From Trichodesmium erythraeum IMS101 (GTDB taxonomy: Bacteria; Cyanobacteriota; Cyanobacteriia; Cyanobacteriales; Microcoleaceae), in assembly GCF_000014265.1 (NCBI RefSeq), contig NC_008312.1, positions 3,330,001 through 3,362,000 of the forward strand: DNA of 32,000 nt, read 5' to 3'. Each line of letters starts with the position of its first letter. Positions within the stretch are counted from its first letter, which is position 1. A program made the translations under genes and the position numbers. The notes under the pieces are model-generated. The model worked only from the letters and a program-made list of their open reading frames with translations, made no database searches and was not told where the DNA came from. Shown piece by piece: positions 1-29,025 of the stretch.

Positions 1-1
1 T

Positions 2-991
2 CAAAAGGAAGAGGTTCAAAAAAAAATAGTATCTGATTCTTTTTCGTTATCTGAAATAAACCCCAACCAAACGTTTAATATTATTGATGATAATGTTGTG
101 GAAAATCAGAAAAATCAGTGTCTTGATGATAATAATTATGTTTATTTGGCGATAGATTTAAAATTAGAAAGCACAAAAATTCAGAAAAATGATGCAGACA
201 AATTCCTGGTTAATACATGGTTGGCAATTCCTCAATCTTCTCAAAGTTTTTATCATAAAAATTTGTTAAATACTTTTGAATATAATCGAACTTATAGTCA
301 GGCAGAGGTTGAAGAAAAAATTATGAAACTAATTGCAGAATGTAATGAAGAATTAGCAAATATTTTCCCTCCAGAAAAAGATTGGGAGATTGCTATAGAA
401 TGGGTTCTTCCTAATAATTTATTATCTCTACCTGTTGACTGTTGGGAGTATCGAAAAAATGAAAGGATAGGACGTGGTAAATTTCTTTCTGTTCATATTC
501 GTTCATCTCAACGTTTACACATAGCTTATAAACATTATCATAAATCATGGAAAGATAAATGGAACTATCTTCAGGGAAACATACAAAATATTAATTTGGG
601 TAACTATATTTTAGCTTGCCAATGTCAAAATATTAATGATAATTATTTGAAAAATATTGATAATAAAAAGAAGATTCTGGGGATTAATTTCCCCTTCAAA
701 ATAGAAGAGTTAGAAAATATTACTTATGAGTTAATGATAGAAACAGGAATTCCTATAGCTTTGTGGTCTAGATGTAAAGAGTCTAATGTGAATCACCTTA
801 TAGATTTAGATACATTGATAAACCCCAATAATGAAAATGTTTTAAATCTACAAAATTTACCTGAATATGTGGAACAGAAGAGGTTAGACTCTCATTCAAA
901 TGACCCTCATCATTTAGGACATCATCTTTGCTTTTTATGTGAAAATCCTTATAATTATCCAATAAAAAGAAAATTAAATTTTGGGTATTAA
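2..991 (+). CDS. 3' part of a larger protein that runs off the left edge. The C-terminal region resembles a VMAP-C (vWA-MoxR-associated protein C-terminal) domain.
   Basis: Frame 2 is open from nt 2, with no stop before the GTG at 98 used by the ORF track. The stop TAA is at 989-991. The block IEWVLPNNLLSLPVDCWEY...GKFLSVHIRSSQRL recalls the LPxxLLxxPVxxW ... hhhRSxxR pattern I associate with VMAP-C. The gene lies directly upstream of a MoxR-type ATPase. The domain call is from memory and was not searched. Confidence 0.55.
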   Translation, partial: QKEEVQKKIVSDSFSLSEINPNQTFNIIDDNVVENQKNQCLDDNNYVYLAIDLKLESTKIQKNDADKFLVNTWLAIPQSSQSFYHKNLLNTFEYNRTYSQAEVEEKIMKLIAECNEELANIFPPEKDWEIAIEWVLPNNLLSLPVDCWEYRKNERIGRGKFLSVHIRSSQRLHIAYKHYHKSWKDKWNYLQGNIQNINLGNYILACQCQNINDNYLKNIDNKKKILGINFPFKIEELENITYELMIETGIPIALWSRCKESNVNHLIDLDTLINPNNENVLNLQNLPEYVEQKRLDSHSNDPHHLGHHLCFLCENPYNYPIKRKLNFGY

Positions 992-1034
992 TTTAGTACT
1001 GTTTATTAGCTGACCTTGTGGGAAAAATTAATGG

Positions 1035-1995
1035 ATTTGGTAGTAACATTTTATCAGTTTATTAATTTTGAAACCTGAAACATAACACCTGAGAAAAAAA
1101 AGAATGAATTTTGTTAATTCTTACACCTAATACCTAACACCTGAAACTTAAAATTTTAGAAAAAAGAAAAAATTTTGTTCCTTTTTAAACCTCAAACCTA
1201 AAGCCTAAAGCCTAAAAACTAAAGCCTAAAACCTAAAACCTAAAACCTAAAGCCTAAAACCTAAAACCTAAAACCTAAAACCTAAAACCTAAAGCCTAAA
1301 ACCTAAAACCTAAAGTAACACCTAAAACTCATGAGTAAAAAGAACAAATTTTGTTAATTTTTAAACCTAAAACCTAAAGCCTAAAACCTAAAACCTAAAA
1401 CCTAAAGCCTAAAACCTAAAACCTAAAGTAACACCTAAAACTCATGAGTAAAAAGAACAAATTTTGTTAATTTTTAAACCTAAAACCTAAAGCCTAAAAC
1501 CTAAAGCCTAAAACCTAAAACCTAAAACCTAAAACCTAAAACCTAAAGTAACACCTAAAACTCATGAGTAAAAAGAACAAATTTTGTTAATTTTTAAACC
1601 TAAAACCTAAAACCTAAAACCTAACACCTAAAACCCAATACCTAAAGCCTAAAACCTAACACCTAAAACCTAAAACCTAAAGCCTAAAACCTAAAACCTA
1701 AAGCCTAAAACCTAAAACCTAAAGTAACACCTAAAACTCATGAGTAAAAAGAACAAATTTTGTTAATTTTTAAACCTAAAACCTAAAGCCTAAAACCTAA
1801 TACCTAACACCTAAAACCTAAAGCCTAAAACCTAACACCTAAAACCTAAAGTAACACCTAAAACTCATGAGTAAAAAGAACAAATTTTGTTAATTTTTAA
1901 ACCTAAAACCTAAAGCCTAAAACCTAACACCTAACACCTAATACCTAAAGTCTAATACCTAAAACCTAAAACCTAACACCTAACACCTAAAACTT
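1035..1995 (+). repeat. Compound tandem repeat. Heptanucleotide arrays (consensus CCTAAAA, variants CCTAAAG/CCTAACA/CCTAATA) are organised into 5-7 higher-order units of about 113-176 bp.
   Basis: Direct reading. A 35-nt head ATTTGGTAGTAACATTTTATCAGTTTATTAATTTT (1035-1069) is followed by heptamer runs. The runs are interrupted by a conserved core CACCTAAAACTCATGAGTAAAAAGAACAAATTTTGTTAATTTTTAAACC, whose ATG falls at 1331, 1444, 1564, 1740 and 1867. Two degenerate cores lie near 1100 and 1170. The last unit merges into the real MoxR start at 1996. Confidence 0.95.
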
Positions 1996-2943
1996 ATGAG
2001 TAATTGGCAAATTTTTAAGGGAAATAATACACCTCATACTGTTAGTAAATGGCCGGAACCTCCCCCTTGGCGGAATTTTAATCAACAGCAGGAACCAAAG
2101 AATAATTTTCAAGCAAATGAGAAAGTTATTAACGCTGTTAATATGGCTATTTATTTACATCGCCCACTTTTGGTAACAGGAAAACCAGGAACCGGTAAAT
2201 CTAGTTTAGCGAGGGCGATCGCTTCGGAATTACAATTAGGAAAAGTCTTACATTGGCCAATTAATACCCGGAGTACTTTACAGGAGGGATTATATTATTA
2301 TGACGCGATCGCTCGTCTACAGGATGCTCAAATTAATCAACAGGAAAAAGATAAGTTTAATATTGGAAATTATATACGTTTAGGAGCTTTAGGAACTGCG
2401 ATGTGTTCTTCTGAAAAACCGAGGGTATTACTAATTGATGAAATTGATAAAAGTGACATTGATTTACCTAATGATTTACTCAATATTTTTGAGGATGGCT
2501 ATTTTATTATTAAAGAACTACAAAGATTGAAAAAATATCAGAATTCTCAAAAAATAAGTGTTGAAACTTATGATGGTAAGACTCATAAAGTTGAGGATGG
2601 AATGATAGCCTGCAAGAAATTTCCTATTGTAATAATGACGAGTAATGGAGAAAGAGAATTTCCTTTACCTTTTAAGCGTCGCTGTATTCAACTAGAAATT
2701 AATGAACCTAATATTGAGGAACTAACTAATATTATTAAAGCCCATTTAGGAGATGATTTAACTCAAGATATTGAAGCAAGAATTTCTGAGTTTGTGAAAA
2801 AAAGAGACAAGGGACCTTTGGCAACAGATCAATTACTTAATGTGGCATTTATGTTGATGAATAAGCCATTGCCTAATGCTGGGGAAAAAGAGGAAATAAT
2901 TCAACGTTTAATGGCATATCTCAACACAACTGGAGAAGAATAA
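1996..2943 (+). CDS. MoxR-like / AAA_5-type AAA+ ATPase
   Basis: 315-aa ORF with an ATG start. Walker A is GKPGTGKS, Walker B is VLLIDEIDKSD, sensor-1-like is IVIMTSN, and an Arg pair is FKRRC. Size and motif spacing are typical of MoxR/AAA_5 chaperone-like ATPases. A vWA-containing protein is encoded downstream. Confidence 0.85.
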   Translation: MSNWQIFKGNNTPHTVSKWPEPPPWRNFNQQQEPKNNFQANEKVINAVNMAIYLHRPLLVTGKPGTGKSSLARAIASELQLGKVLHWPINTRSTLQEGLYYYDAIARLQDAQINQQEKDKFNIGNYIRLGALGTAMCSSEKPRVLLIDEIDKSDIDLPNDLLNIFEDGYFIIKELQRLKKYQNSQKISVETYDGKTHKVEDGMIACKKFPIVIMTSNGEREFPLPFKRRCIQLEINEPNIEELTNIIKAHLGDDLTQDIEARISEFVKKRDKGPLATDQLLNVAFMLMNKPLPNAGEKEEIIQRLMAYLNTTGEE

Positions 2944-2954
2944 TAATTAAAATG

Positions 2955-3091
2955 ATAGCTTGTAGTATTGGGCTTAAGTTATTAGATAAAGTAGTTATAG
3001 AACAGCTCGCAGTAGATGGCTGCAGTTATTAGAAAAAGTAGTTATAAGATAGCTAGTAGTATTTTTTTTAGATATTAGAAAAACTAGTAGA
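2955..3091. repeat. About 2.5-3 copies of a ~47-bp direct repeat
   Basis: AGTTATTAGATAAAGTAGTTATAGAACAGCTCGCAGTAG (2977-3015) matches AGTTATTAGAAAAAGTAGTTATAAGATAGCTAGTAGTAT (3024-3062). Partial copies flank both. Read by eye. Confidence 0.6.
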
Positions 3092-3208
3092 GTTTTAGCC
3101 CGAAGATCCAGCATATTTCACCTGGATGAGGTTAAATTACTCCAAGTAATACACCTGTCTATTGTTGATAAATATTCTACAATTTATACAAAATAATGTT
3201 ATACTCTA

Positions 3209-3715
3209 ATGGCTGTTAAAATAGTGAATAATATGGTTTGTTACGTTAAAATAGATATTATTGAATCAGCGGAAGAACTAAAAGAAATATTATCTCGACA
3301 GACAGATATAAAGCTCAAGCAAAAAGTACAAGCATTATATTGGCTTAAAATAGGAGCAGTAAATACTATTGAAAATATATCAATATTATTAGGATGTCAT
3401 CGAACAACTGTATCACGATGGTTTAGTACATATAGAAAGTTGGGTATAGAAGGTTTATTGAAGAAGAAAAAAATTTTGGGTAGACCTAGAAAAATATCAC
3501 CTATGTTAGAAAAAAAACTTAGAGATGAGCTAAAAGATATAGAGAGTTTTAAGAGTTATAATGAAGTGCAAACATGGTTAAAAGCAATGTGGGATATTAA
3601 TCTGCCATACTCAACAGTACATCGGTATGTTTATTATAATTTAAATACTAAATTAAAAGGGTCACCTCCAATAAGTAGTCAACAAAATTCAACAGCAGTT
3701 GAGGACTCAAAATAA
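3209..3715 (+). pseudogene. IS630-family-like transposase remnant. Only the N-terminal HTH / winged-helix part is present, and no DDE domain follows.
   Basis: The residues ...ISILLGCHRTTVSRWFSTYRKLGIEGLLKKKKILGRPRKISP...YSTVHRYVYYNLNTKLKG resemble the orfA/HTH region of cyanobacterial IS630-type transposases (from memory). The ORF stops at 168 aa, and downstream frames are broken. No catalytic domain and no clear terminal inverted repeats were found. Confidence 0.55.
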
Positions 3716-5014
3716 AATATTTTAACTACTATCGAAGGTAATTGAAAAATTGAAAATAACGGGTAAGTAAATTTTGGAACAGAGTTAAGTTTTACCTAAC
3801 TATTTAACTATCAGCTATCAGCTATTGAATGCTTACCTAATTATTTATCTCTACTTTATATACTTACTAAATACTTAATAGGCTAAGTTTCTACTACAAA
3901 AAAAATTATTACTTATTTACTGTCAGGTTAGTTTTTCCTTCTATTGCCTACTAAATTATGTTTGAAAAATTCATAGCTTTTATAAAGACAAAAGAATGGC
4001 AACTTGATTCGATGCAAATAGCAGAAGTTTTATGGTTTGTGCACCAAGTTAGTGAACAAAAACAGGAAGAAAATAATTCTCAAAATTTAGTTTCAAGTAA
4101 TACGGAGGAGCTAGCTGAAAACTTTGATCAATCTTATGACTTTCAACTTTCAAAAACAGCTAGTATTCAACAACCAAAAAAAACGCCTACTAGGTCTTCG
4201 TCTTCTCAATATCCTTTAACTACTTCATCATCAAATAAATCTCAAAATACAGAAATTCAACCAACATCTTTGACTACTGAAAAATTGCCTATCAAATTAC
4301 CAGACATAGCAATTTTGCGTAATACTCTAGAATTAAGTCGCCTAAGTAGTCAACAAAATTCAACAGCAGTTGAGGACTCAAAATAAAATATTTTAACTAC
4401 TATCGAAGGTAATTGAAAAATTGAAAATAACGGGTAAGTAAATTTTGGAACAGAGTTAAGTTTTACCTAACTATTTAACTATCAGCTATCAGCTATTGAA
4501 TGCTTACCTAATTATTTATCTCTACTTTATATACTTACTAAATACTTAATAGGCTAAGTTTCTACTACAAAAAAAATTATTACTTATTTACTGTCAGGTT
4601 AGTTTTTCCTTCTATTGCCTACTAAATTATGTTTGAAAAATTCATAGCTTTTATAAAGACAAAAGAATGGCAACTTGATTCGATGCAAATAGCAGAGGTT
4701 TTATGGTTTGTGCACCAAGTTAGTGAACAAAAACAGGAAGAAAATAATTCTCAAAATTTAGTTTCAAGTAATACGGAGGAGCTAGCTGAAAACTTTGATC
4801 AATCTTATGACTTTCAACTTTCAAAAACAGCTAGTATTCAACAACCAAAAAAAACGCCTACTAGGTCTTCGTCTTCTCAATATCCTTTAACTACTTCATC
4901 ATCAAATAAATCTCAAAATACAGAAATTCAACCAACATCTTTGACTACTGAAAAATTGCCTATCAAATTACCAGACATAGCAATTTTGCGTAATACTCTA
5001 GAATTAAGTCGCCT
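3673..5014 (+). repeat. Perfect-register tandem duplication, 2 x 671 bp (copy 1 is 3673-4343, copy 2 is 4344-5014)
   Basis: By eye the two copies are identical apart from one substitution that I found (A at 4026 versus G at 4697, synonymous Glu). Each copy holds ~285 bp of IS-remnant/leader sequence plus the first ~386 nt of the large vWA gene. Confidence 0.95.
3958..4386 (+). pseudogene. Truncated duplicate of the N-terminus (about aa 1-129) of the 1911-aa vWA protein, fused to a 13-aa out-of-context tail. It may be expressed as a stand-alone N-terminal domain.
   Basis: Same leader, ATG and first 129 codons as the CDS at 4629. The reading frame then crosses the duplication junction (4343/4344) into IS-remnant sequence and ends with SSQQNSTAVEDSK*, the same tail as the ORF at 3209. 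Confidence 0.8.
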
Positions 5015-8000
5015 TATTAAACCCTTCAAACAAAAGGTAAACTCTCGAGTTGCTCAGGAATTAGATGTTAATGAAACTGCCAAAATAAGTGCAGAACTTA
5101 GTACCCTGAATTTTCCCCGTTATTTTCCAGTTTTAACTCCTAAAAAAGAACGTTGGTTAGATGTTGTTTTGCTCATAGAAGATAGTGATTCAATGATTCT
5201 TTGGCAGTCTTTATTGCCAGAAGTTAGAGATTTTCTAGAACATTTAGGAGCATTTCGAGATATCAAACTTTATCGCATAAAATGGGATAATAATTCAGAA
5301 AATTTACAAATTTATCCTTTTCATTCTCCTTCTCTGACTCTATCTCCTCAAGAATTAAATTCATCCGATCATAGACGGTTAATTTTGATGCTTAGTGATT
5401 GTATTTCCCTAGCTTGGATTAATCAGAAATTTATTAATATTCTTCAAAAATGGGCAACAAAAGAAAAGTTGACTATCCTCAATCCTTTTCCTGAAAGAAT
5501 GTGGGAAAATACAAATCTTTGTTATGCAATTAGACTGCGATTAGGAAATAATAAAAAGCAAAATTCGACTCAAAAATGGGATGCAATTCCTATTGAGTAT
5601 TGGCAAGAAAAATACCTTAATCAACAAACAGTTAAATTACCAATTCTAAATTTAGAACCAAAGTCAATGGCTGCTTGGGTTAATGTTATGGTAGGAAAAG
5701 GAATCAGTTGGTGTGCTGGTGCTGGGTTAGGTTTAGAATTGATGGGTCCAGAGCCAGAAGAAGAGGAAGAACCTCTCACTCCTAGAGAACAAATTAATAA
5801 TTTTTATGCCACTTTTTCCAAGGAAGCTTGGCAATTAATTCAATGGTTATCTGCTATTCCAATTAATCTTTCTACTATTCGTTTAATACAACGAGCTTTA
5901 TTACCAAAGTCGACTCAAATTAATGTCGCAGAAGTATTAATGGGAGGATTATTAAGTCCGGTTAAACCTTTTAATTCTTATCGTTTTCCTCATCAAATTG
6001 AGTTTGAATTTCAACCGGGAATTAGGGAGATATTTTTAGACCGTTTAGGAGGAAAAGAATTTTGTATTGGGGTTATTGGTCGTTTAACTGAAAAAATTGC
6101 TAGTCATTTTGGATATGAAACTATTCGAGAATTTGAAGCAATTCTATTAAATGAACCTTGGAATTTTCGGGATGATCAAGATATTAGATTAATTCACACT
6201 TTTGCGACTATATCTATCTCAACTCTTAGGCAATATGGAGATAAATATACTGATTATATTCCCAAGTTAGATAGAAGTCGCGCTCAGTTATATTTGATGT
6301 CTGAAGTTCCAGGAGAATCTATAAATTGGAGAGATTTTCTGGAAAAAGTCGCTCAAAAATATCGTTTAAGTTCTATTCAAAAAGAAATTTTAATTAATCT
6401 ATTTCCAAGTTCCCAAGAATTTCTTTCTATTTCTGAACTAGCTCAAAAACTTCTCAGTTCGGCTTCAGTTATTAAAGGTCGCTTAAATCATATTTTTCCT
6501 AAATTTGAAAGTAAAAATCCAGATTTATTTGCATCTCAAAAATATTCTCGACTAGAAGCTCTGCATTTATTTTTATCTTCTGAATATAAAAATTCATATA
6601 TTCCTCAAATTCTTGAAAATGATCAAATTGAGGAAAATTTACAAGACTTGAATTCTGAAGTTCCAGGAGAGTCTGTAAAATGGAGAGATTTTCTGGAAAA
6701 AGTCGCTCAAGAGTATGATTTAACTTCTATTCAAAAAGAAATTTTAATTAATCTATTTCCAAGTTCCCAAGAATTTCTTTCTATTTCTGAACTAGCTCAA
6801 AAACTTCTCAGTTCGGCTTCAGTTATTAAAGGTCGCTTAAATCATATTTTTCCTAAATTTGAAAATAAAAATCCAGATTTATTTGCATCTCAAAAATATT
6901 CTCGACTAGAAGCTCTGCATTTATTTTTATCTTCTGAATATGTAAATTCATATATTCCTCAAACTCTTGAAAATGATCAAATTGAGGAAAATTTACAAGA
7001 CTTGAATTCTGAAGTTCCAGGAGAGTCTGTAAAATGGAGAGATTTTCTGGAAAAAGTCGCTCAAGAGTATGATTTAACTTCTATTCAAAAAGAAATTTTA
7101 ATTAATCTATTTCCAAGTTCCCAAGAATTTCTTTCTATTTCTGAACTAGCTCAAAAACTTCTCAGTTCGGCTTCAGTTATTAAAGGTCGCTTAAATCATA
7201 TTTTTCCTAAATTTGAAAGTAAAAATCCAGATTTATTTGCATCTCAAAAATATTCTCGACTAGAAGCTCTGCATTTATTTTTATCTTCTGAATATAAAAA
7301 TTCATATATTCCTCAAATTCTTGAAAATGATCAAATTGAGGAAAATTTACAAGACTTGAATTCTGAAGTTCCAGGAGAGTCTGTAAAATGGAGAGATTTT
7401 CTGGAAAAAGTCGCTCAAGAGTATGATTTAACTTCTATTCAAAAAGAAATTTTAATTAATCTATTTCCAAGTTCCCAAGAATTTCTTTCTATTTCTGAAC
7501 TAGCTCAAAAACTTCTCAGTTCGGCTTCAGTTATTAAAGGTCGCTTAAATCATATTTTTCCTAAATTTGAAAATAAAAATCCAGATTTATTTGCATCTCA
7601 AAAATATTCTCGACTAGAAGCTCTGCATTTATTTTTATCTTCTGAATATGTAAATTCATATATTCCTCAAACTCTTGAAAATGATCAAATTGAGGAAAAT
7701 TTACAAGACTTGAATTCTGAAGTTCCAGGAGAGTCTGTAAAATGGAGAGATTTTCTGGAAAAAGTCGCTCAAGAGTATGATTTAACTTCTATTCAAAAAG
7801 AAATTTTAATTAATCTATTTCCAAGTTCCCAAGAATTTCTTTCTATTTCTGAACTAGCTCAAAAACTTCTCAGTTCGGCTTCAGTTATTAAAGGTCGCTT
7901 AAATCATATTTTTCCTAAATTTGAAAGTAAAAATCCAGATTTATTTGCATCTCAAAAATATTCTCGACTAGAAGCTCTGCATTTATTTTTATCTTCTGAA

Positions 8001-10364
8001 TATAAAAATTCATATATTCCTCAAATTCTTGAAAATGATCAAATTGAGGAAAATTTACAAGACTTGAATTCTGAAGTTCCAGGAGAGTCTGTAAAATGGA
8101 GAGATTTTCTGGAAAAAGTCGCTCAAAAATATCGTTTAAGTTCTAGTCAAAAAGAAATTTTAATTAATCTATTTCCAAGTTCCCAAGAATTTCTTTCTAT
8201 TTCTGAACTAGCTCAAAAACTGTCTCTTTCAACTTCAGCCATTAGGGGTCGCTTAACTAATATCTTTCGTAAATTTGAAAGTAAAAATCCAGATTTATTT
8301 GCATCTCAAAAATATTCTCGACTAGAAGCTCTGCATTTATTTTTATCTTCTGAATATAAAAATTCATATATTCCTCAAATTCTTGAAAATGATCAAATTG
8401 AGGAAAATTTACAAGACTTGAATTCTGAGGTTCCAGGAGAGTCTGTAAAATGGAGAGATTTTCTGGAAAAAGTCGCTCAAGAGTATGATTTAACTTCTAT
8501 TCAAAAAGAAATTTTAATTAATCTATTTCCAAGTTCCCAAGAATTTCTTTCTATTTCTCAAGCTGCTCAAAAACTGTCTCTTTCAACTTCAGCCATTAGG
8601 GGTCGCTTAACTAATATCTTTCGTAAATTTGAAAGTAAAAATCCAGATTTATTTGCATCTCAAAAATATTCTCGACTAGAAGCTCTGCATTTATTTTTAT
8701 CTTCTGAATATAAAAATTCATATATTCCTCAAATTCTTGAAAATGATCAAATTGAGGAAAATTTACAAGACTTGAATTCTGAAGTTCCAGGAGAGTCTGT
8801 AAAATGGAGAGATTTTCTGGAAAAAGTCGCTCAAGAGTATGATTTAAATTCTATTCAAAAAGAAATTTTAATTAATCTATTTCCAAGTTCCCAAGAATTT
8901 CTTTCTATTTCTGAACTAGCTCAAAAACTTCTCAGTTCGGCTTCAGTTATTAAAGGTCGCTTAAATCATATTTTTCCTAAATTTGAAAGTAAAAATCCAG
9001 ATTTATTTGCATCTCAAAAATATTCTCGACTAGAAGCTCTGCATTTATTTTTATCTTCTGAATATGTAAATTCATATATTCCTCAAATTCTTGAAAATGA
9101 TCAAATTGAGGAAAATTTACAAGACTTGAATTCTGAGGTTCCAGGAGAGTCTGTAAAATGGAGAGATTTTCTGGAAAAAGTCGCTCAAGAGTATGATTTA
9201 ACTTCTATTCAAAAAGAAATTTTAATTAATCTATTTCCAAGTTCCCAAGAATTTCTTTCTATTTCTCAAGCTGCTCAAAAACTGTCTCTTTCAACTTCAG
9301 CCATTAGGGGTCGCTTAACTAATATCTTTCGTAAATTTGAGAATAAAAACCCAGGGTTATTTGAATCTAGAAAAGGCTCTAAATTAGAAGCTCTACAGTC
9401 ATTTTTATTTTCTCAATATGTAAATTTAGATATTCCTCAAACTATTAAAAATAATCAGTTTCAAATTGGGGAAAAATTACAACATTGGAGTTTTAAAACC
9501 CCTACTGTTAACCGACGTGGAAATATTATCAACACCAGAACTTATACTGCTTCTTATTTCATCGAAATTCTTGGGCCTGATATTAATTTAGAAATGGTAG
9601 CTATCCCTGGTGGTACTTTTACCATGGGTTCTCCTGAAAGTGAAAAGTATAGCGAAGATAATGAACGGCCCCAACATCAGGTAACTGTTCCTTCCTTTTT
9701 TATGGGCAAATATCCAGTAACTCAAGGACAGTGGAAAGCGATCGCCTCTCGAACAGACATAAAAGTAGAAGGAGACCTAGACCCAGAGCCATCATATTTT
9801 AAAGAACCATACGAAAATATAGATAGATGGCACAGACCAGTGGAGCGGGTTAGTTGGAACCAAGCAGTAGAATTTTGTCAAAGACTATCAAAACTAACAG
9901 GAAGAAAGTACAGGTTGCCGAGTGAAGCAGAATGGGAATATGCTTGTCGTGCAGGAACGAGTACACCATTCTACTTTGGAGAAACCATAACACCTGAGTT
10001 AGCTAACTATGATGGGAAGTATACTTACAGCGATGGGCCAAAAGGAGAATATAGAGGGCAAACAACTCCTGTAGGTAAATTTCCACCAAATGCTTTTGGT
10101 TTATATGATATGCATGGAAACGTTCATGAATGGTGTGCTGACGACAGGCATGATAACTATGTAGGAGCTCCTACAGATGGAAGTGCTTGGATTAATAGTA
10201 ATACACATAGTGATACTAAAAGTAGAAAAATCCTTCGTAGCGGCTCCTGGTACGGCTATCCTTGGTGGTGTCGCTCTGGGGACCGCAACAGCTATTTCTC
10301 CGTCGAGGCGAACAACATCATTTTTGGTTTTCGTCTTGTGAGTGTCCCCCCCCAGGACTTTTGA
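4629..10364 (+). CDS. Giant multidomain protein. Order of parts: N-terminal alpha-helical domain, S/T/Q-rich linker, vWA-like domain, helical middle region, 9 tandem HTH modules, C-terminal FGE-sulfatase (SUMF1/C-type-lectin fold) domain.
   Basis: 1911-aa uninterrupted ORF. The vWA evidence is a MIDAS-like VVLLIEDSDSM (DSDSM at 5181-5195), then LILMLSDC and LTILNPFPERMW strands. The FGE-sulfatase evidence from ~9589 is GGTFTMGS, RPVERVSWNQAVEFCQRL, YRLPSEAEWEYACRAG, FGLYDMHGNVHEWC and RSGSW. Each repeat module contains a sigma70-region-4/LuxR-like HTH (LTSIQKEILINLF...LSISELAQKL..S.SVIKGRLNHIFPKF). Confidence 0.9.
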   Translation: MFEKFIAFIKTKEWQLDSMQIAEVLWFVHQVSEQKQEENNSQNLVSSNTEELAENFDQSYDFQLSKTASIQQPKKTPTRSSSSQYPLTTSSSNKSQNTEIQPTSLTTEKLPIKLPDIAILRNTLELSRLIKPFKQKVNSRVAQELDVNETAKISAELSTLNFPRYFPVLTPKKERWLDVVLLIEDSDSMILWQSLLPEVRDFLEHLGAFRDIKLYRIKWDNNSENLQIYPFHSPSLTLSPQELNSSDHRRLILMLSDCISLAWINQKFINILQKWATKEKLTILNPFPERMWENTNLCYAIRLRLGNNKKQNSTQKWDAIPIEYWQEKYLNQQTVKLPILNLEPKSMAAWVNVMVGKGISWCAGAGLGLELMGPEPEEEEEPLTPREQINNFYATFSKEAWQLIQWLSAIPINLSTIRLIQRALLPKSTQINVAEVLMGGLLSPVKPFNSYRFPHQIEFEFQPGIREIFLDRLGGKEFCIGVIGRLTEKIASHFGYETIREFEAILLNEPWNFRDDQDIRLIHTFATISISTLRQYGDKYTDYIPKLDRSRAQLYLMSEVPGESINWRDFLEKVAQKYRLSSIQKEILINLFPSSQEFLSISELAQKLLSSASVIKGRLNHIFPKFESKNPDLFASQKYSRLEALHLFLSSEYKNSYIPQILENDQIEENLQDLNSEVPGESVKWRDFLEKVAQEYDLTSIQKEILINLFPSSQEFLSISELAQKLLSSASVIKGRLNHIFPKFENKNPDLFASQKYSRLEALHLFLSSEYVNSYIPQTLENDQIEENLQDLNSEVPGESVKWRDFLEKVAQEYDLTSIQKEILINLFPSSQEFLSISELAQKLLSSASVIKGRLNHIFPKFESKNPDLFASQKYSRLEALHLFLSSEYKNSYIPQILENDQIEENLQDLNSEVPGESVKWRDFLEKVAQEYDLTSIQKEILINLFPSSQEFLSISELAQKLLSSASVIKGRLNHIFPKFENKNPDLFASQKYSRLEALHLFLSSEYVNSYIPQTLENDQIEENLQDLNSEVPGESVKWRDFLEKVAQEYDLTSIQKEILINLFPSSQEFLSISELAQKLLSSASVIKGRLNHIFPKFESKNPDLFASQKYSRLEALHLFLSSEYKNSYIPQILENDQIEENLQDLNSEVPGESVKWRDFLEKVAQKYRLSSSQKEILINLFPSSQEFLSISELAQKLSLSTSAIRGRLTNIFRKFESKNPDLFASQKYSRLEALHLFLSSEYKNSYIPQILENDQIEENLQDLNSEVPGESVKWRDFLEKVAQEYDLTSIQKEILINLFPSSQEFLSISQAAQKLSLSTSAIRGRLTNIFRKFESKNPDLFASQKYSRLEALHLFLSSEYKNSYIPQILENDQIEENLQDLNSEVPGESVKWRDFLEKVAQEYDLNSIQKEILINLFPSSQEFLSISELAQKLLSSASVIKGRLNHIFPKFESKNPDLFASQKYSRLEALHLFLSSEYVNSYIPQILENDQIEENLQDLNSEVPGESVKWRDFLEKVAQEYDLTSIQKEILINLFPSSQEFLSISQAAQKLSLSTSAIRGRLTNIFRKFENKNPGLFESRKGSKLEALQSFLFSQYVNLDIPQTIKNNQFQIGEKLQHWSFKTPTVNRRGNIINTRTYTASYFIEILGPDINLEMVAIPGGTFTMGSPESEKYSEDNERPQHQVTVPSFFMGKYPVTQGQWKAIASRTDIKVEGDLDPEPSYFKEPYENIDRWHRPVERVSWNQAVEFCQRLSKLTGRKYRLPSEAEWEYACRAGTSTPFYFGETITPELANYDGKYTYSDGPKGEYRGQTTPVGKFPPNAFGLYDMHGNVHEWCADDRHDNYVGAPTDGSAWINSNTHSDTKSRKILRSGSWYGYPWWCRSGDRNSYFSVEANNIIFGFRLVSVPPQDF
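6300..9485 (+). repeat. Nine in-frame tandem copies of a 354-bp (118-aa) coding unit
   Basis: Unit starts (TCTGAAGTTCCAGGAGA) fall at 6300, 6654, 7008, 7362, 7716, 8070, 8424, 8778 and 9132. Copies 2+3 and 4+5 form an apparently identical 708-bp super-repeat. Copies 6, 7 and 9 carry an alternative recognition-helix cassette (KLSLSTSAIRGRLTNIFRKF instead of KLLSSASVIKGRLNHIFPKF). Copy 9 diverges in its second half. Confidence 0.95.
10236..10361 (+). other. Candidate DGR variable region (VR) at the extreme C-terminus of the FGE-sulfatase domain
   Basis: It encodes RSGSWYGYPWWCRSGDRNSYFSVEANNIIFGFRLVSVPPQDF. This aligns with the RGGSW-NNN..N-CRSANRN-NN...-NNN-GFR(V/L)V layout of C-type-lectin-fold DGR targets (from memory). 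The segment is conspicuously A-poor (about 18 A in ~125 nt by hand count) and GC-rich within an AT-rich gene. It ends with a C8 run (10346-10353) just before the stop. Confidence 0.5.
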
Positions 10365-10469
10365 ATAGCCCTTTGCCCTCTTGCCCTCTTGCCCTATTTA
10401 GTCTCGCCAAAGGCTAGTCGAAATTTTTGAGCTTATGTAGTATTGTTGTAATATGTTGCGTGCTATATT

Positions 10470-18502: not shown

Positions 18503-19204
18503 ATGATAGATAAAATACCTGAGTTTAAAAATCAAAAACTTCTTCAACAAGCTCTAACCCATCGTTCCTATTTAAACGAAAATTATGGAGATGAGGAAGA
18601 CAACGAAAGTCTAGAATTTATCGGCGATGCTTTACTAGGTTTCTTAGTAGGAGAATTGCTATATAGAAGATACAAAGAAGAGCATAATCTCAAACCCAAA
18701 GAACTTACTCGGATCCGTTCACTTTTAGTAGATGAAAAACAATTAGCAAAGTTCGCAGTTCAATTGGGAATTGGTGCAAAAATGCGCTTAGGTAAAGGTG
18801 CGGAAAAAGATGGTGGAAGGAAAAATCCAGCTTTACTAAGTGACACTTTTGAAGCAATAATTGGAGCCTATTTTTTGGACTCAAATTTAACGAAAGTTAA
18901 ACCTTTTATTAAAAGGCTTTTTGAACCTGTTGCAGATAATATAATTTTGCCTAATTATGGTGATAATTCACAACCAAAAGATTTAGTAGATACTAAGGGT
19001 AAATTTCAACAGTGGGCACTCGCAAAATTTGGAGAAAATCCTAGATATGAATCTAATAATGGAGAAGGTTTAGATCATGCTAAAATATTTACTGCGGAAG
19101 TTAGAGTTAGAGGAAAATTATATGGTGTTGGTAAAGGAAATCGTAAACAAGAAGCAGAAAAAAGTGCGGCAGAAAAAGCTCTGAAAAAAGTAGGGTTAAT
19201 TTGA
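18503..19204 (+). CDS. rnc: Ribonuclease III
   Basis: Contains LTHRSY, the signature ESLEFIGDALL, DTFEAIIGA, and a C-terminal dsRBD (KGKFQQWA...HAKIFTAEV...GKGNRKQEAEKSAAEKAL). Confidence 0.9.
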   Translation: MIDKIPEFKNQKLLQQALTHRSYLNENYGDEEDNESLEFIGDALLGFLVGELLYRRYKEEHNLKPKELTRIRSLLVDEKQLAKFAVQLGIGAKMRLGKGAEKDGGRKNPALLSDTFEAIIGAYFLDSNLTKVKPFIKRLFEPVADNIILPNYGDNSQPKDLVDTKGKFQQWALAKFGENPRYESNNGEGLDHAKIFTAEVRVRGKLYGVGKGNRKQEAEKSAAEKALKKVGLI

Positions 19205-19564
19205 TTGAATAAGGAAAAACTAATTTGGATAATTTCCTAGATTCATTTTTTTGAAGAGCTTAATTTTTTATTTGGGCAAGTCAGCCAATAAATTTTTATT
19301 TAAAAAGATTTAACTTAAAAAAAAGCTGATAACTCAATACTAATTGATATAAATAATTTTGAAATCTTAACTTTTGAGTTTCAACTTAAAATTACCAAAG
19401 AAATAAAGTTAATCTTTTACTCTTTCAACAGAATAAAAAAAACGAAATTTGGGATTTTTAGGTCTCCCTATTACTGGAAGTACTGTTGCCCTACGCGATA
19501 TGAAAAGCCCAGTTCCTCCTCCAGGAAGCTAACCAATAAATGATAATTGATACTGATAACTGAA

Positions 19565-21013
19565 ATGACGGATCAGCCAAGCTCCCGCAAAGAACTATAT
19601 GCTCGTATTCGCGAAATAGGCCGGGAAGAATTTCTCCTCGAAGAAATGACTCGCTATGGCTTTTGGCCAGAAGGTGAAGAAATGCCTCTAGACCCTGTCG
19701 ATGAAATTCAGCGTCGTGGGGAACTAGAACAACAACTGAAAAAACTTCGCCAAGAAAATGCCCACCTTTTTAACTTAAAGAAACTGGGTCAAGAAGCTTA
19801 CAAACAAAGATTAGTTGAGTCACGTCGCAAACAACAAGAAACTAAAGAACTTCGGGAAAGAGAAAGACAAGAACGCGCTAAAGCATGGCAAGAAAAAAAA
19901 GAAAATGACATTATTTATCTAGGGGAAGAGATATCTGGAGGACTGAATAATGTTGAAGGGAATATCTTTCGTCTCGAAATTTACAACCTCCCTATCCTTA
20001 ATACTGCCCAAGATATAGCTAATGCTATGGATATTACTGTGGGAGAACTTAGGTTTCTGGCATTTTCCCGCCCTACTTCTACAGTTTCCCACTACATCCG
20101 TTTCAAAATTCCTAAGAAAACAGGGGGAGAAAGGCAAATATCTGCTCCGATGCCACGTTTGAAAAATGTTCAAACTTGGATACTTGATAATATTCTCTGT
20201 AATGTTCCCCTCCATGAAGCAGTTCATGGTTTCCGTGCCGGACATTCTATTCTTACTAATGCTGAACCTCATGTGGCTAAAGATGTAATTATTAATTTTG
20301 ACCTAAAAAATTTTTTTCCCTCTATTTGTTACAAGCGTGTCAAAGGATTATTTTTTTCATTGGGTTACTCTGAAGCTGCTGCTACTATTTTTGCTCTTCT
20401 TTGTACTGAACCTAATGTCGTAGTAGTAGAGTTAGACGGACAGGTTTATTATGTAGCTCAGAGCGATCGCCACTTACCTCAAGGTTCTCCTGCTAGTCCA
20501 GCAATTACTAATATTATGTGTCGTCGCTTGGATAAACGTCTAAGTGAAATGGCAGCCAAACTTGATTTTGTTTATACTCGTTATGCTGATGACTTGACTT
20601 TTTCTAGTTCTGGAGATAGTCTCCGACACATTTGCAATGTTTTCCGACGTACTGAGTCTATTGTTAGTCATGAAGGGTTTACTGTAAATAGAGAAAAGAC
20701 CAGACTTCTTCGGGGCAAGTCTAGTCAACTTGAAGTTACTGGTGTTGTGGTGAATGAATTTCCGAATATTTCTCGCAAAGAGTTGAAGAGGTTTCGGGCA
20801 ACTTTATATCAGATAGAAAAGGACGGACCTCAAGGGAAAAGGTGGGGTCATAGTGATAATGTGATAGCTGCAATAGAAGGTTTTGCTAATTTTGTGGCGA
20901 TGGTCAACCCGGAAAAAGGTAGGGAGTTAGTGAGGCGGGTGAAACAAATTAAGGAAAAATATACTGGGAGAAGGAGGCGATCGACGAAAATTTTGGAGCA
21001 CGATGGTACTTAG
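19565..21013 (+). CDS. Retron-clade reverse transcriptase with a ~165-aa N-terminal coiled-coil extension
   Basis: RT motifs are IPKKTGGERQISAP, NFDLKNFFPSI, LPQGSPASPAITN and YTRYADDLTFS. Retron-type hallmarks are NAxxH (TNAEPH) and VTG (LEVTGVVVN). The N-terminus is rich in charged heptads (RRGELEQQLKKLRQEN...RKQQETKELRERERQERAKAW). The track start at 19547 is TTG, so I prefer the ATG at 19565. Confidence 0.88.
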   Translation: MTDQPSSRKELYARIREIGREEFLLEEMTRYGFWPEGEEMPLDPVDEIQRRGELEQQLKKLRQENAHLFNLKKLGQEAYKQRLVESRRKQQETKELRERERQERAKAWQEKKENDIIYLGEEISGGLNNVEGNIFRLEIYNLPILNTAQDIANAMDITVGELRFLAFSRPTSTVSHYIRFKIPKKTGGERQISAPMPRLKNVQTWILDNILCNVPLHEAVHGFRAGHSILTNAEPHVAKDVIINFDLKNFFPSICYKRVKGLFFSLGYSEAAATIFALLCTEPNVVVVELDGQVYYVAQSDRHLPQGSPASPAITNIMCRRLDKRLSEMAAKLDFVYTRYADDLTFSSSGDSLRHICNVFRRTESIVSHEGFTVNREKTRLLRGKSSQLEVTGVVVNEFPNISRKELKRFRATLYQIEKDGPQGKRWGHSDNVIAAIEGFANFVAMVNPEKGRELVRRVKQIKEKYTGRRRRSTKILEHDGT

Positions 21014-28816: not shown

Positions 28817-29025
28817 TGTCAGGTTTTAGGTATCAGGTGTCAGGTTTCAGGTGTTAGGTATTAGTTTTAAAAATCAATAAATTGATAGCATATTACTACC
28901 AAATATATTGATTTTAGCCCGTTAAATATCAATAACTTTTTACTTCAATTCACTTTCAATTATTTCTAATAACCTGAAACCTGAAATCACCAAACCTTAA
29001 ACATTAAACCTACTAAAACTTAATA
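28817..29025. repeat. Second member of the head-plus-heptamer repeat family, in inverted orientation with an opposing heptamer arm
   Basis: 28817-28866 is the GGT-strand array (CAGGTTTTAGGTATCAGGTGTCAGGTTTCAGGTGTTAGGTATTAG). The reverse complement of 28869-28903 is ATTTGGTAGTAATATGCTATCAATTTATTGATTTT, matching 30 of 35 nt of the head at 1035-1069. 28967-29020 carries ACCTGAAACCTGAAATCACCAAACCTTAAAC in the opposite orientation. Confidence 0.85.

Follow-up and report, generated by a model that had tools for sequence, protein, structure and literature searches.

A length-variable heptamer array whose higher-order units copy a start codon in a VMAP-MoxR operon of Trichodesmium erythraeum

Introduction

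Filamentous cyanobacteria reportedly harbour heptanucleotide repeats of the short tandemly repeated repetitive (STRR) type, as described by Mazel et al. in 1990. The subject of this paper is a heptamer array of Trichodesmium erythraeum IMS101 that occupies the spacer between two genes of a conflict-system operon, the first encoding a caspase-like VMAP protein and the second a MoxR-type AAA+ ATPase. The array was analysed in a stretch of 32,000 nucleotides (nt) from contig NC_008312.1 (positions 3,330,001 to 3,362,000 of the forward strand), here called the window, and coordinates are those of the window unless another contig is named. STRR repeats are intergenic arrays of 7-nt units that also occur within operons, for instance between hupS and hupL; they vary between strains and have no established function (PMC2670836).

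Tandem arrays that incorporate a piece of the neighbouring gene have been encountered in the same organism. By Tery_0080, IMS101 carries an array of more than 6 kb whose nearly identical units of 736-973 nt copy the 3' part of the adjacent gene and produce the most abundant non-coding RNA (ncRNA) of the cell, and conserved operons of this genome are split by long spacers, some of which hold their own promoters (Pfreundt et al. 2014; PMC4143802). Heptamers that precede genes are also on record outside the cyanobacteria. In Haemophilus influenzae, (ATCTTTC)n is located in the 5' untranslated region (5'-UTR) of hmw1A and hmw2A, and the expression of hmw1A is inversely proportional to the number of repeats (PMC12721329). 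In Vibrio cholerae, the number of TTTTGAT heptads in the ctxAB promoter has been set against promoter activity in a preprint (10.1101/2021.05.14.444153). The genes on either side of our array have a described counterpart as well, the 'classical VMAP ternary system' of Kaur et al. (2020), in which an FGE-sulfatase (FGS) domain is typical of cyanobacteria and is usually the target of a diversity-generating retroelement (PMC7159879).

We consider it fairly likely that the Trichodesmium array is a lineage-specific, copy-number-variable higher-order tandem repeat in an expanded VMAP-MoxR spacer, and that it arose as a by-product of repeat instability.

Architecture of the spacer

The spacer measures 1004 nt, from the stop of the upstream open reading frame (ORF; position 991) to the ATG of a 315-residue ORF at 1996. 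The window has a G+C content of 32.6% and contains sites of the highly iterated palindrome HIP1 (GCGATCGC); the composition of the stretch 1201-2000 is very unusual, with a GC skew of -0.53 to -0.70 and an AT skew of +0.37 to +0.48. Tandem Repeats Finder reports a period of 7 nt in 114.6 copies between 1187 and 1993, on which higher-order periods of 113, 120, 127 and 176 nt are superimposed. Parsed into its units, the tract is composed of CCTAAAA, CCTAAAG, CCTAACA and CCTAATA.

Set among the heptamers is a core, CACCTAAAACTCATGAGTAAAAAGAACAAATTTTGTTAATTTTTAAACC, in exactly five copies with ATGs at 1331, 1444, 1564, 1740 and 1867, precisely as a preliminary description of this DNA had listed them. 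The segment over which all copies are identical extends to 51 nt (GTAACACCTAAAACTCATGAGTAAAAAGAACAAATTTTGTTAATTTTTAAA, with the ends GTAACACC...TTTTTAAA) and starts at 1315, 1428, 1548, 1724 and 1851, the start-to-start distances being 113, 120, 176 and 127 nt, which differ from one another by multiples of 7 only. Chance is excluded for cores and heptamers alike, since a 31-nt core probe finds six matches at up to three mismatches in the window against 0.00 expected from shuffles, and a 20-nt heptamer probe finds 73 against 0.03. All five ATGs open the peptide MSKKNKFC followed by a stop, the 8-codon mini-ORF that the preliminary description had recognised. Its observation that the 7-nt period places TAA in all three forward frames is equally correct and can be extended to the other strand: TAA recurs every 7 nt on the plus strand and TAG every 7 nt on the minus strand, which closes all six frames.

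Followed from upstream on the plus strand, the spacer begins with a unique, non-repetitive part (992..1085) that is present in all Trichodesmium loci, with an identity of 99-100% in erythraeum-type contigs and of 85-88% in two sister lineages represented by metagenome-assembled genomes, MAG_R01 and MAG_R02. Two additional cores come next, both old, degenerate and devoid of an ATG. Core A (CACCTGAGAAAAAAAAGAATGAATTTTGTTAATTCTTACACC; 1086..1127) emerged from a repeat-family search and is kept in MAG_R01 and MAG_R02; core B (1147..1191) is the source, in its right half, of the right half of the amplified cores. A block of CCTAAAA and CCTAAAG heptamers (S0, 1190..1314) then leads into five higher-order units, each made of a core with its mini-ORF and a run of heptamers. 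Unit 1 (1315..1427) has its core at 1315-1365, its mini-ORF at 1331-1357 and 9 heptamers; unit 2 (1428..1547) has them at 1428-1478 and 1444-1470, followed by 10 heptamers; unit 3 (1548..1723) at 1548-1598 and 1564-1590, followed by 18; unit 4 (1724..1850) at 1724-1774 and 1740-1766, followed by 11; and unit 5 (1851..1995) at 1851-1901 and 1867-1893, followed by 13 heptamers that abut the real start. Unit 5 is the unstructured leader of MoxR, and no Shine-Dalgarno sequence is present in it. Identity among the five cores is 100%, while the heptamer spacers between them differ, a pattern that, judged from the sequence, indicates a recent origin or ongoing homogenisation.

A probe allowing mismatches detects no copy elsewhere in the 32-kb window; none was found in viral contigs or in plasmids, and among species-representative genomes the sole match is the orthologous locus of MAG_R02, in a scan that did not reveal whether the sequenced strain's genome was included or masked. 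The core is therefore not a dispersed mobile element.

As to the heptamers, the rest of the 32-kb window contains only two related short tracts, at 28819-28861 (minus strand) and 28971-29011 (plus strand). Built from ACCTGAA, ACCTAAC and ACCTGAT in inverted orientation, the two tracts flank about 110 nt between convergent genes for a methyltransferase and an SMC/AAA_23 ATPase, and the sequence AAAACTTAATATATAAATGAGTGCTAATGG that follows the second tract bears a loose likeness to the context of the MoxR start. Simple (CCTAAAA)n tracts occur in other HIP1-containing cyanobacterial contigs. A metagenome scan with (CCTAAAA)4 returned at least 120 very mixed contigs of 28-72% GC, with many matches at contig ends beside CCCTAAA runs. 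Such runs at the ends of metagenomic contigs are probably eukaryotic and telomere-like, and the heptamer alone could mislead binning or contamination screens.

Variation among strains and genera

Between assemblies the spacer ranges from 241 to 1004 nt and holds 0, 1, 3 or 5 ATG-bearing cores, the kind of variability expected of a simple sequence repeat (SSR) contingency locus; the length variation between strains and populations that the preliminary description had surmised is thus real. MAG_R01 (241 nt) and MAG_R02 (365 nt) have no ATG-core, and their heptamers run directly into CTCATGAGT(A/G)ATTGG. A single ATG-core is present in contig L022 (426 nt), in strain 21-75 (468 nt), in contigs L031-L033, which include the St11 bin (475 nt), and in the ALOHA-type contig L012 (482 nt). 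Three are present in contig L030 (722 nt) and five in the window (1004 nt). Contigs from Tara and other environmental sources that span the spacer possess one or three ATG-cores, and several broken ones have at least 2-3 cores. The one-core spacer contains 35 127-mers that are not found in the three-core spacer, and hence the one-core form is a separate haplotype and no collapse of a longer form.

The spacer is expanded throughout Trichodesmium, and its beginning has the same layout everywhere, consisting of unique sequence, core A, three heptamers, core B and a heptamer tract that reaches up to the ATG. In other genera the gap between the VMAP-C and MoxR genes amounts to 55 nt (a marine contig), 181 nt (Symploca) or 61 nt (Crocosphaera) and contains no heptamers, and MoxR is separated from the next gene by 5-6 nt. 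The mini-ORF is missing from MAG_R01, from MAG_R02 and from all other genera, so that only the erythraeum-type lineage has it, which is not how a conserved upstream ORF (uORF) would be distributed; within this lineage, ATG-cores are kept in every contig.

MAG_R01 (L016, JAKQYD010000134.1; 2760-5700) is a mosaic with respect to the window. The 3' end of its VMAP gene is 95.2% and its 5' spacer 84.8% identical, and the corresponding values are 99.5% for MoxR and 98.9% for the downstream part. This arrangement points to recombination with a breakpoint in the heptamer tract or, alternatively, to a chimeric join of metagenome sequences made at the repeat. MAG_R02 shows no mosaic of the MAG_R01 type.

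Origin of the copied gene start

The N-terminus of MoxR follows the pattern MS[ND]W[QK]IF.G across cyanobacterial genera, down to 53% identity. The start at 1996 is therefore the ancestral one, from which the cores were copied. Taken together with sister lineages that lack the ATG-core, this upholds the proposal in the preliminary description that the cores derive from the 5' end of MoxR by tandem duplication. The extent of the copy has to be redrawn at one end. Identity between core and gene start spans 25 nt (TAACACCTAAAACT[C/T]ATGAGTAA), of which 17 nt belong to the leader and 8 nt to the ORF, and up to this point the reiteration of the gene start stands. Later codons ('CAAATTTT'), which had been counted as part of it, do not belong to the copy: homology of gene and core past ATGAGTAA was rejected (local alignment, 20,000 shuffles, p ~0.10), and the likeness of 'CAAATTTT' stems from the pre-existing core-B motif. 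For core A against the gene, p is ~0.025, but the match includes some heptamer-like sequence, and we do not claim homology on this basis.

An alignment across three lineages, in which cores A and B were set against the amplified core and the gene start, reveals the composite nature of the amplified core. The 25 nt on its left (TAACACCTAAAACTCATGAGTAA) correspond to the end of the leader and the MoxR start, and its right part (AAAAAGAACAAATTTTGTTAA...) to core B, with 21 nt identical to core B of MAG_R02. Core B as such is poorly conserved between lineages.

An origin by tandem duplication and a variable length are supported by these sequence comparisons, and the sequence of events may have been as follows. 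Comparison shows the ancestral state, in which the VMAP stop was followed by unique sequence, by cores A and B with three heptamers between them, and by a heptamer tract leading to the MoxR ATG. One illegitimate recombination at the level of microhomology would have joined ...TAACACCTAAAACTCATGAGTAA to the A-run of core B (AAAAAGAACAAATTTTGTT...), the duplicated segment reaching from this A-run to nucleotide 8 of MoxR, with about 2 nt of microhomology in the A-run. The block of core B, heptamers and start codon would thereby have been duplicated in tandem as a whole. Unequal crossing-over between units and 7-nt slippage would later have given rise to five units here and one to three in the relatives; these processes would account both for the amplification and for spacings that differ only by multiples of 7. 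From the position of the breakpoint it would follow that the reiterated start codons are passengers and were not built as decoys.

A second tandem duplication is located in the same operon and consists of two copies of 671 nt (3672..5013, plus strand) with one mismatch, at 4026. The repeat copies the last 44 nt of a helix-turn-helix (HTH) ORF, the intergenic region of 243 nt and ~129 codons from the start of the large vWA/FGE-sulfatase gene, which creates a truncated ORF of 142 residues at 3958-4386. A separate equivalent of this ORF is not called in L012, L013, L016 and L017 (MAG_R01, 21-75 and ALOHA-type). The presence of another 5'-end duplication is a strong pointer to a general mutational process over a dedicated regulatory device, and the published array by Tery_0080 and the operon-splitting spacers of IMS101 (PMC4143802) lead in this direction too.

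Several points weigh against regarding the array as a recent by-product of mutation. Copy numbers that come from short-read assemblies are lower bounds, and the '0-core' state of MAG_R01 could be a product of the chimeric join considered above. The perfect identity of the cores and the retention of the ATG-cores could be explained by selection as well as by recency. Cores A and B persist in lineages that are ~12% diverged, and their persistence could mean that the core motif, which includes an imperfect palindrome (AACAAATTTTGTT), has a function. Lastly, we infer the neutrality of the array, and a dosage effect on MoxR is possible.

Consequences for expression and alternative explanations

The RNA of the array is essentially devoid of stable structure. 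The sense RNA of the 113-nt unit folds with -2.8 kcal/mol (z = +0.5 against shuffles), and for the 141 nt around the real ATG the predicted structure is weaker than in any of 200 shuffles (z = +2.9); neither strand of the unit nor the leader has structure beyond that of shuffled controls. A consensus scan detected no promoter- or terminator-like sites inside the array and no terminator on the plus strand, and a search of Rfam with 800-4700 at E<=1 yielded only a chance match to 'sok' (17.9 bits against a gathering score of 59). An NtcA-like GTA-N8-AAC noticed by eye in the core was dropped, as both the half-site and the spacing to any -10 element are wrong.

Being G-poor and unstructured, with neither terminator hairpins nor a Shine-Dalgarno sequence, the tract would be transparent to read-through from the VMAP gene. 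The copied ATGs have the same accessible context as the real start, and transcription of the spacer would probably lead to their translation into an 8-residue peptide. For MoxR the net effect would probably be small and would amount to a longer untranslated gap and a looser coupling to the upstream gene; cyanobacteria are not known to possess Rho, so that polarity need not result from a long gap of this kind. With its end at 1893, the last mini-ORF stops 103 nt short of the ATG at 1996, and no hairpin links the two as coupling by a uORF would demand. Bacterial ribosomes bind internally and do not scan. In the absence of scanning, and with a gap of 103 nt that no structure bridges, the core ATGs cannot throttle MoxR in the manner of eukaryotic uORFs. 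The preliminary description had entertained a role as throttle, uORF series or phase-variation device for MoxR, which is unsupported and mechanistically weak.

The strongest of the alternatives, though in our judgement unlikely, is that the number of heptamers and units tunes MoxR relative to the caspase-like VMAP effector in the manner of a rheostat or contingency locus. The length polymorphism between strains and in natural populations would fit, as would the location directly in front of a regulatory ATPase in a conflict system and the retention of ATG-cores in every erythraeum-type contig, and there is the precedent of a transcribed 7-nt repeat, with expression that falls as the repeat lengthens (PMC12721329). 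However, the hmw mechanism needs a long hairpin, formed by the repeats and a G-rich arm and cut by RNase III, whereas the RNA is essentially unstructured here. The repeats are placed upstream of the ATG, neither in an ORF nor in a detectable promoter spacer, which is not the position of an SSR contingency locus; without scanning, copied starts that lie 103 nt or more upstream have no means of occluding the real one; and the 5'-end duplication next door is clearly non-regulatory. Were the number of repeats to act in this way, populations would be heterogeneous in the threshold at which a defence or cell-death system is triggered. A still more speculative version, to which we give little credence, envisages a self-amplifying cassette of core motif, heptamer leader and ATG, the copy number of which would set the ratio of MoxR to the caspase-like VMAP protein and hence the firing threshold. 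Such a cassette would be a heritable and rapidly reversible 'dial' that leads to heterogeneity in bloom-collapse or phage-response behaviour.

It is similarly improbable that the MoxR promoter, with an extended -10-like TGTTAATTT, resides in core B and in the right half of each amplified core, which would make every unit a module of promoter, leader and start and give five tandem promoters directed toward MoxR. The motif TGNTANNNT does occur once per amplified core on the plus strand (1352, 1465, 1585, 1761 and 1888), core B of MAG_R02 has TGTTAAATT, and long intra-operon spacers of IMS101 have been shown to hold their own promoters (PMC4143802), which lends the idea some appeal. The motif is, however, found about twice per kb per strand in the AT-rich window, and one per core corresponds to a chance expectation of ~10%. 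No -35 element accompanies it, the consensus scan is negative for the array, and the motif is present neither in core B of the window nor in cores A and B of MAG_R01.

A function of the palindrome AACAAATTTTGTT (AACAAA-T-TTTGTT) as an operator bound by a protein, for example the product of the HTH ORF at 3209-3715, or of the array as a functional repeat RNA, strikes us as very improbable. All seven cores and both sister lineages have the palindrome, the HTH gene is conserved in the Trichodesmium operon, and IMS101 transcribes other tandem arrays at a very high level (PMC4143802). Against this stand the lack of an Rfam match, of a stable fold on either strand and of another copy in the window, the resemblance of the HTH ORF to the N-terminal part of an IS630-type transposase, and the poor conservation of core B.

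The array is real and length-variable in nature. Most short-read contigs break inside it, as is expected for a real repeat, and independent assemblies agree in their distinctive spacers and in the order in which spacers and cores alternate, which lays to rest the concern voiced in the preliminary description that it might be an assembly artefact. The exact count of five units comes from one assembly. Logan contig L005, with an apparent 'deleted unit', was set aside as a possible graph chimera, for its two spacers share 34 nt, more than the 31-mer of the assembler. That mis-assembly of a simpler repeat generated the five units is hardly credible: the draft GCA_018457135.1 has a 100-N gap and another block order in the array, and contigs built from short reads end 34-37 nt before the ATG, but this draft independently contains five of the six heptamer blocks of the window, each flanked by cores, and hence at least four cores, the order of unit-4 spacer, next core and last spacer is repeated in three environmental contigs (L030, L034 and L035), and the spacers are mutually distinct, so that the units are not interchangeable reads.

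The host operon and its neighbours

The gene upstream of the array (1..991, plus strand) is the 3' part of a CHAT (caspase-like)/VMAP-C gene (Pfam PF20028 VMAP-C, E 1.5e-20), the upstream cistron of the operon. It runs off the start of the window; the protein has 699 residues in orthologous contigs, and the full-length ortholog combines a PF12770 CHAT domain with VMAP-C. In T. erythraeum 21-75 (L017, LADK02000181.1; 1432-3532) the gene is called as 581 + 114 residues, not 699, which suggests a frameshift or pseudogene in this strain. The MoxR-type AAA+ ATPase of 315 residues (1996..2943, plus strand; Pfam AAA_5, bpMoxR) has relatives at 97-99% protein identity that are named Trichodesmium.

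Between MoxR and the third gene lies the HTH ORF of 168 residues (3209-3715; HTH_32 / HTH_23), with identical spacing in most Trichodesmium contigs that reach past MoxR; contig L001 has the DNA without an ORF call. It may be a domesticated or fossil insertion.

The third component is a protein of 1911 residues (4629..10364, plus strand) with 8.9 in-frame 354-nt repeats and a C-terminal FGE-sulfatase domain (E 9e-55); Pfam detects no vWA domain in it. The repeats, at 6300-9457, have units of 118 residues at 95% identity with weak Pfam matches of the HTH and sigma-70 region-4-like kind. Orthologs of this protein are called at only 967 residues in contigs L012 and L029, which reflects a variable repeat number or short-read collapse. 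The FGE-sulfatase (DUF323) domain is located at ~9590-10364, at the C-terminal end, and the stop of the gene is followed by 3.6 copies of GCCCTCTT (10368-10395). FGE-sulfatase (DUF323) is the type of domain targeted by the diversity-generating retroelement of IMS101, which has 12 target genes (PMC4143802). Further downstream, a reverse-transcriptase ORF of 488 residues (RVT_1; 19547-21013) is situated beside an RNase III gene (18503-19204); it probably belongs to a group II intron or a retroelement, which fits the many such elements reported for the genome.

VMAP-C, MoxR and a large third protein are thus encoded in one neighbourhood, in an order shared with Symploca and Crocosphaera, and the locus represents the cyanobacterial form of a VMAP-MoxR-vWA/FGE-sulfatase 'ternary conflict system'.

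Significance

The array provides a clean and datable case of a bacterial simple-sequence tract becoming a higher-order repeat, for which related genomes document the ancestral state, the junction of the duplication and copy numbers in between. It illustrates that a start codon, along with its native context, can be reiterated as a higher-order repeat forms. The host operon, with its caspase-like VMAP protein, MoxR and an FGE-sulfatase protein of the diversity-generating retroelement type, has been linked to defence and cell death in multicellular cyanobacteria, which makes its presence in a bloom-forming diazotroph suggestive, and 40% of the Trichodesmium genome is non-coding, a share that is unexplained. 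If copy number does alter the dosage of MoxR, the array would represent a new kind of tuning knob for conflict systems. If it has no effect, the array would still be a useful strain marker, and a warning for assemblers and annotators, as most short-read contigs break there.

Comparison with known systems

The array is an STRR-type heptanucleotide tract in a new form, with a new unit sequence, no hairpin and higher-order units that carry a start. It shares with STRR repeats the head-to-tail 7-nt unit, the filamentous cyanobacterial host and the position between adjacent cistrons. Classical STRR units such as CCCCAGT, TTGGTCA and CAACAGT are richer in G+C and can form hairpins. By comparison with these canonical units, CCTAAAA is A-rich and G-poor, and it is unstructured in the present context. 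Higher-order units of 113-176 nt that hold a copy of the start codon of a gene are not a described property of STRR repeats either.

The array by Tery_0080 resembles ours in that it occurs in the same organism, that its units contain a partial copy of the adjacent gene and that their near-identity indicates recent amplification. The units considered here are in contrast only 113-176 nt long, are built from heptamers and copy 8 nt of a 5' end. The hmw1A/hmw2A repeats offer the best precedent for a length that tunes expression, and like our array they place a 7-nt repeat, variable between strains or within populations, between promoter and start; unlike it, they require a long RNA hairpin and RNase III and have neither higher-order units nor a reiterated start. 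The ctxAB heptads are heptamer tandem repeats upstream of a gene as well, but they recruit transcriptional regulators within a promoter, whereas no promoter was detected in the array. The systems of Kaur et al. (2020), finally, match the host operon, with its peptidase-VMAP-C protein, MoxR and a large protein that ends in an FGS domain. They are defined by their genes and say nothing of a repeat array, and the spacer of 0.24-1.0 kb is specific to Trichodesmium.

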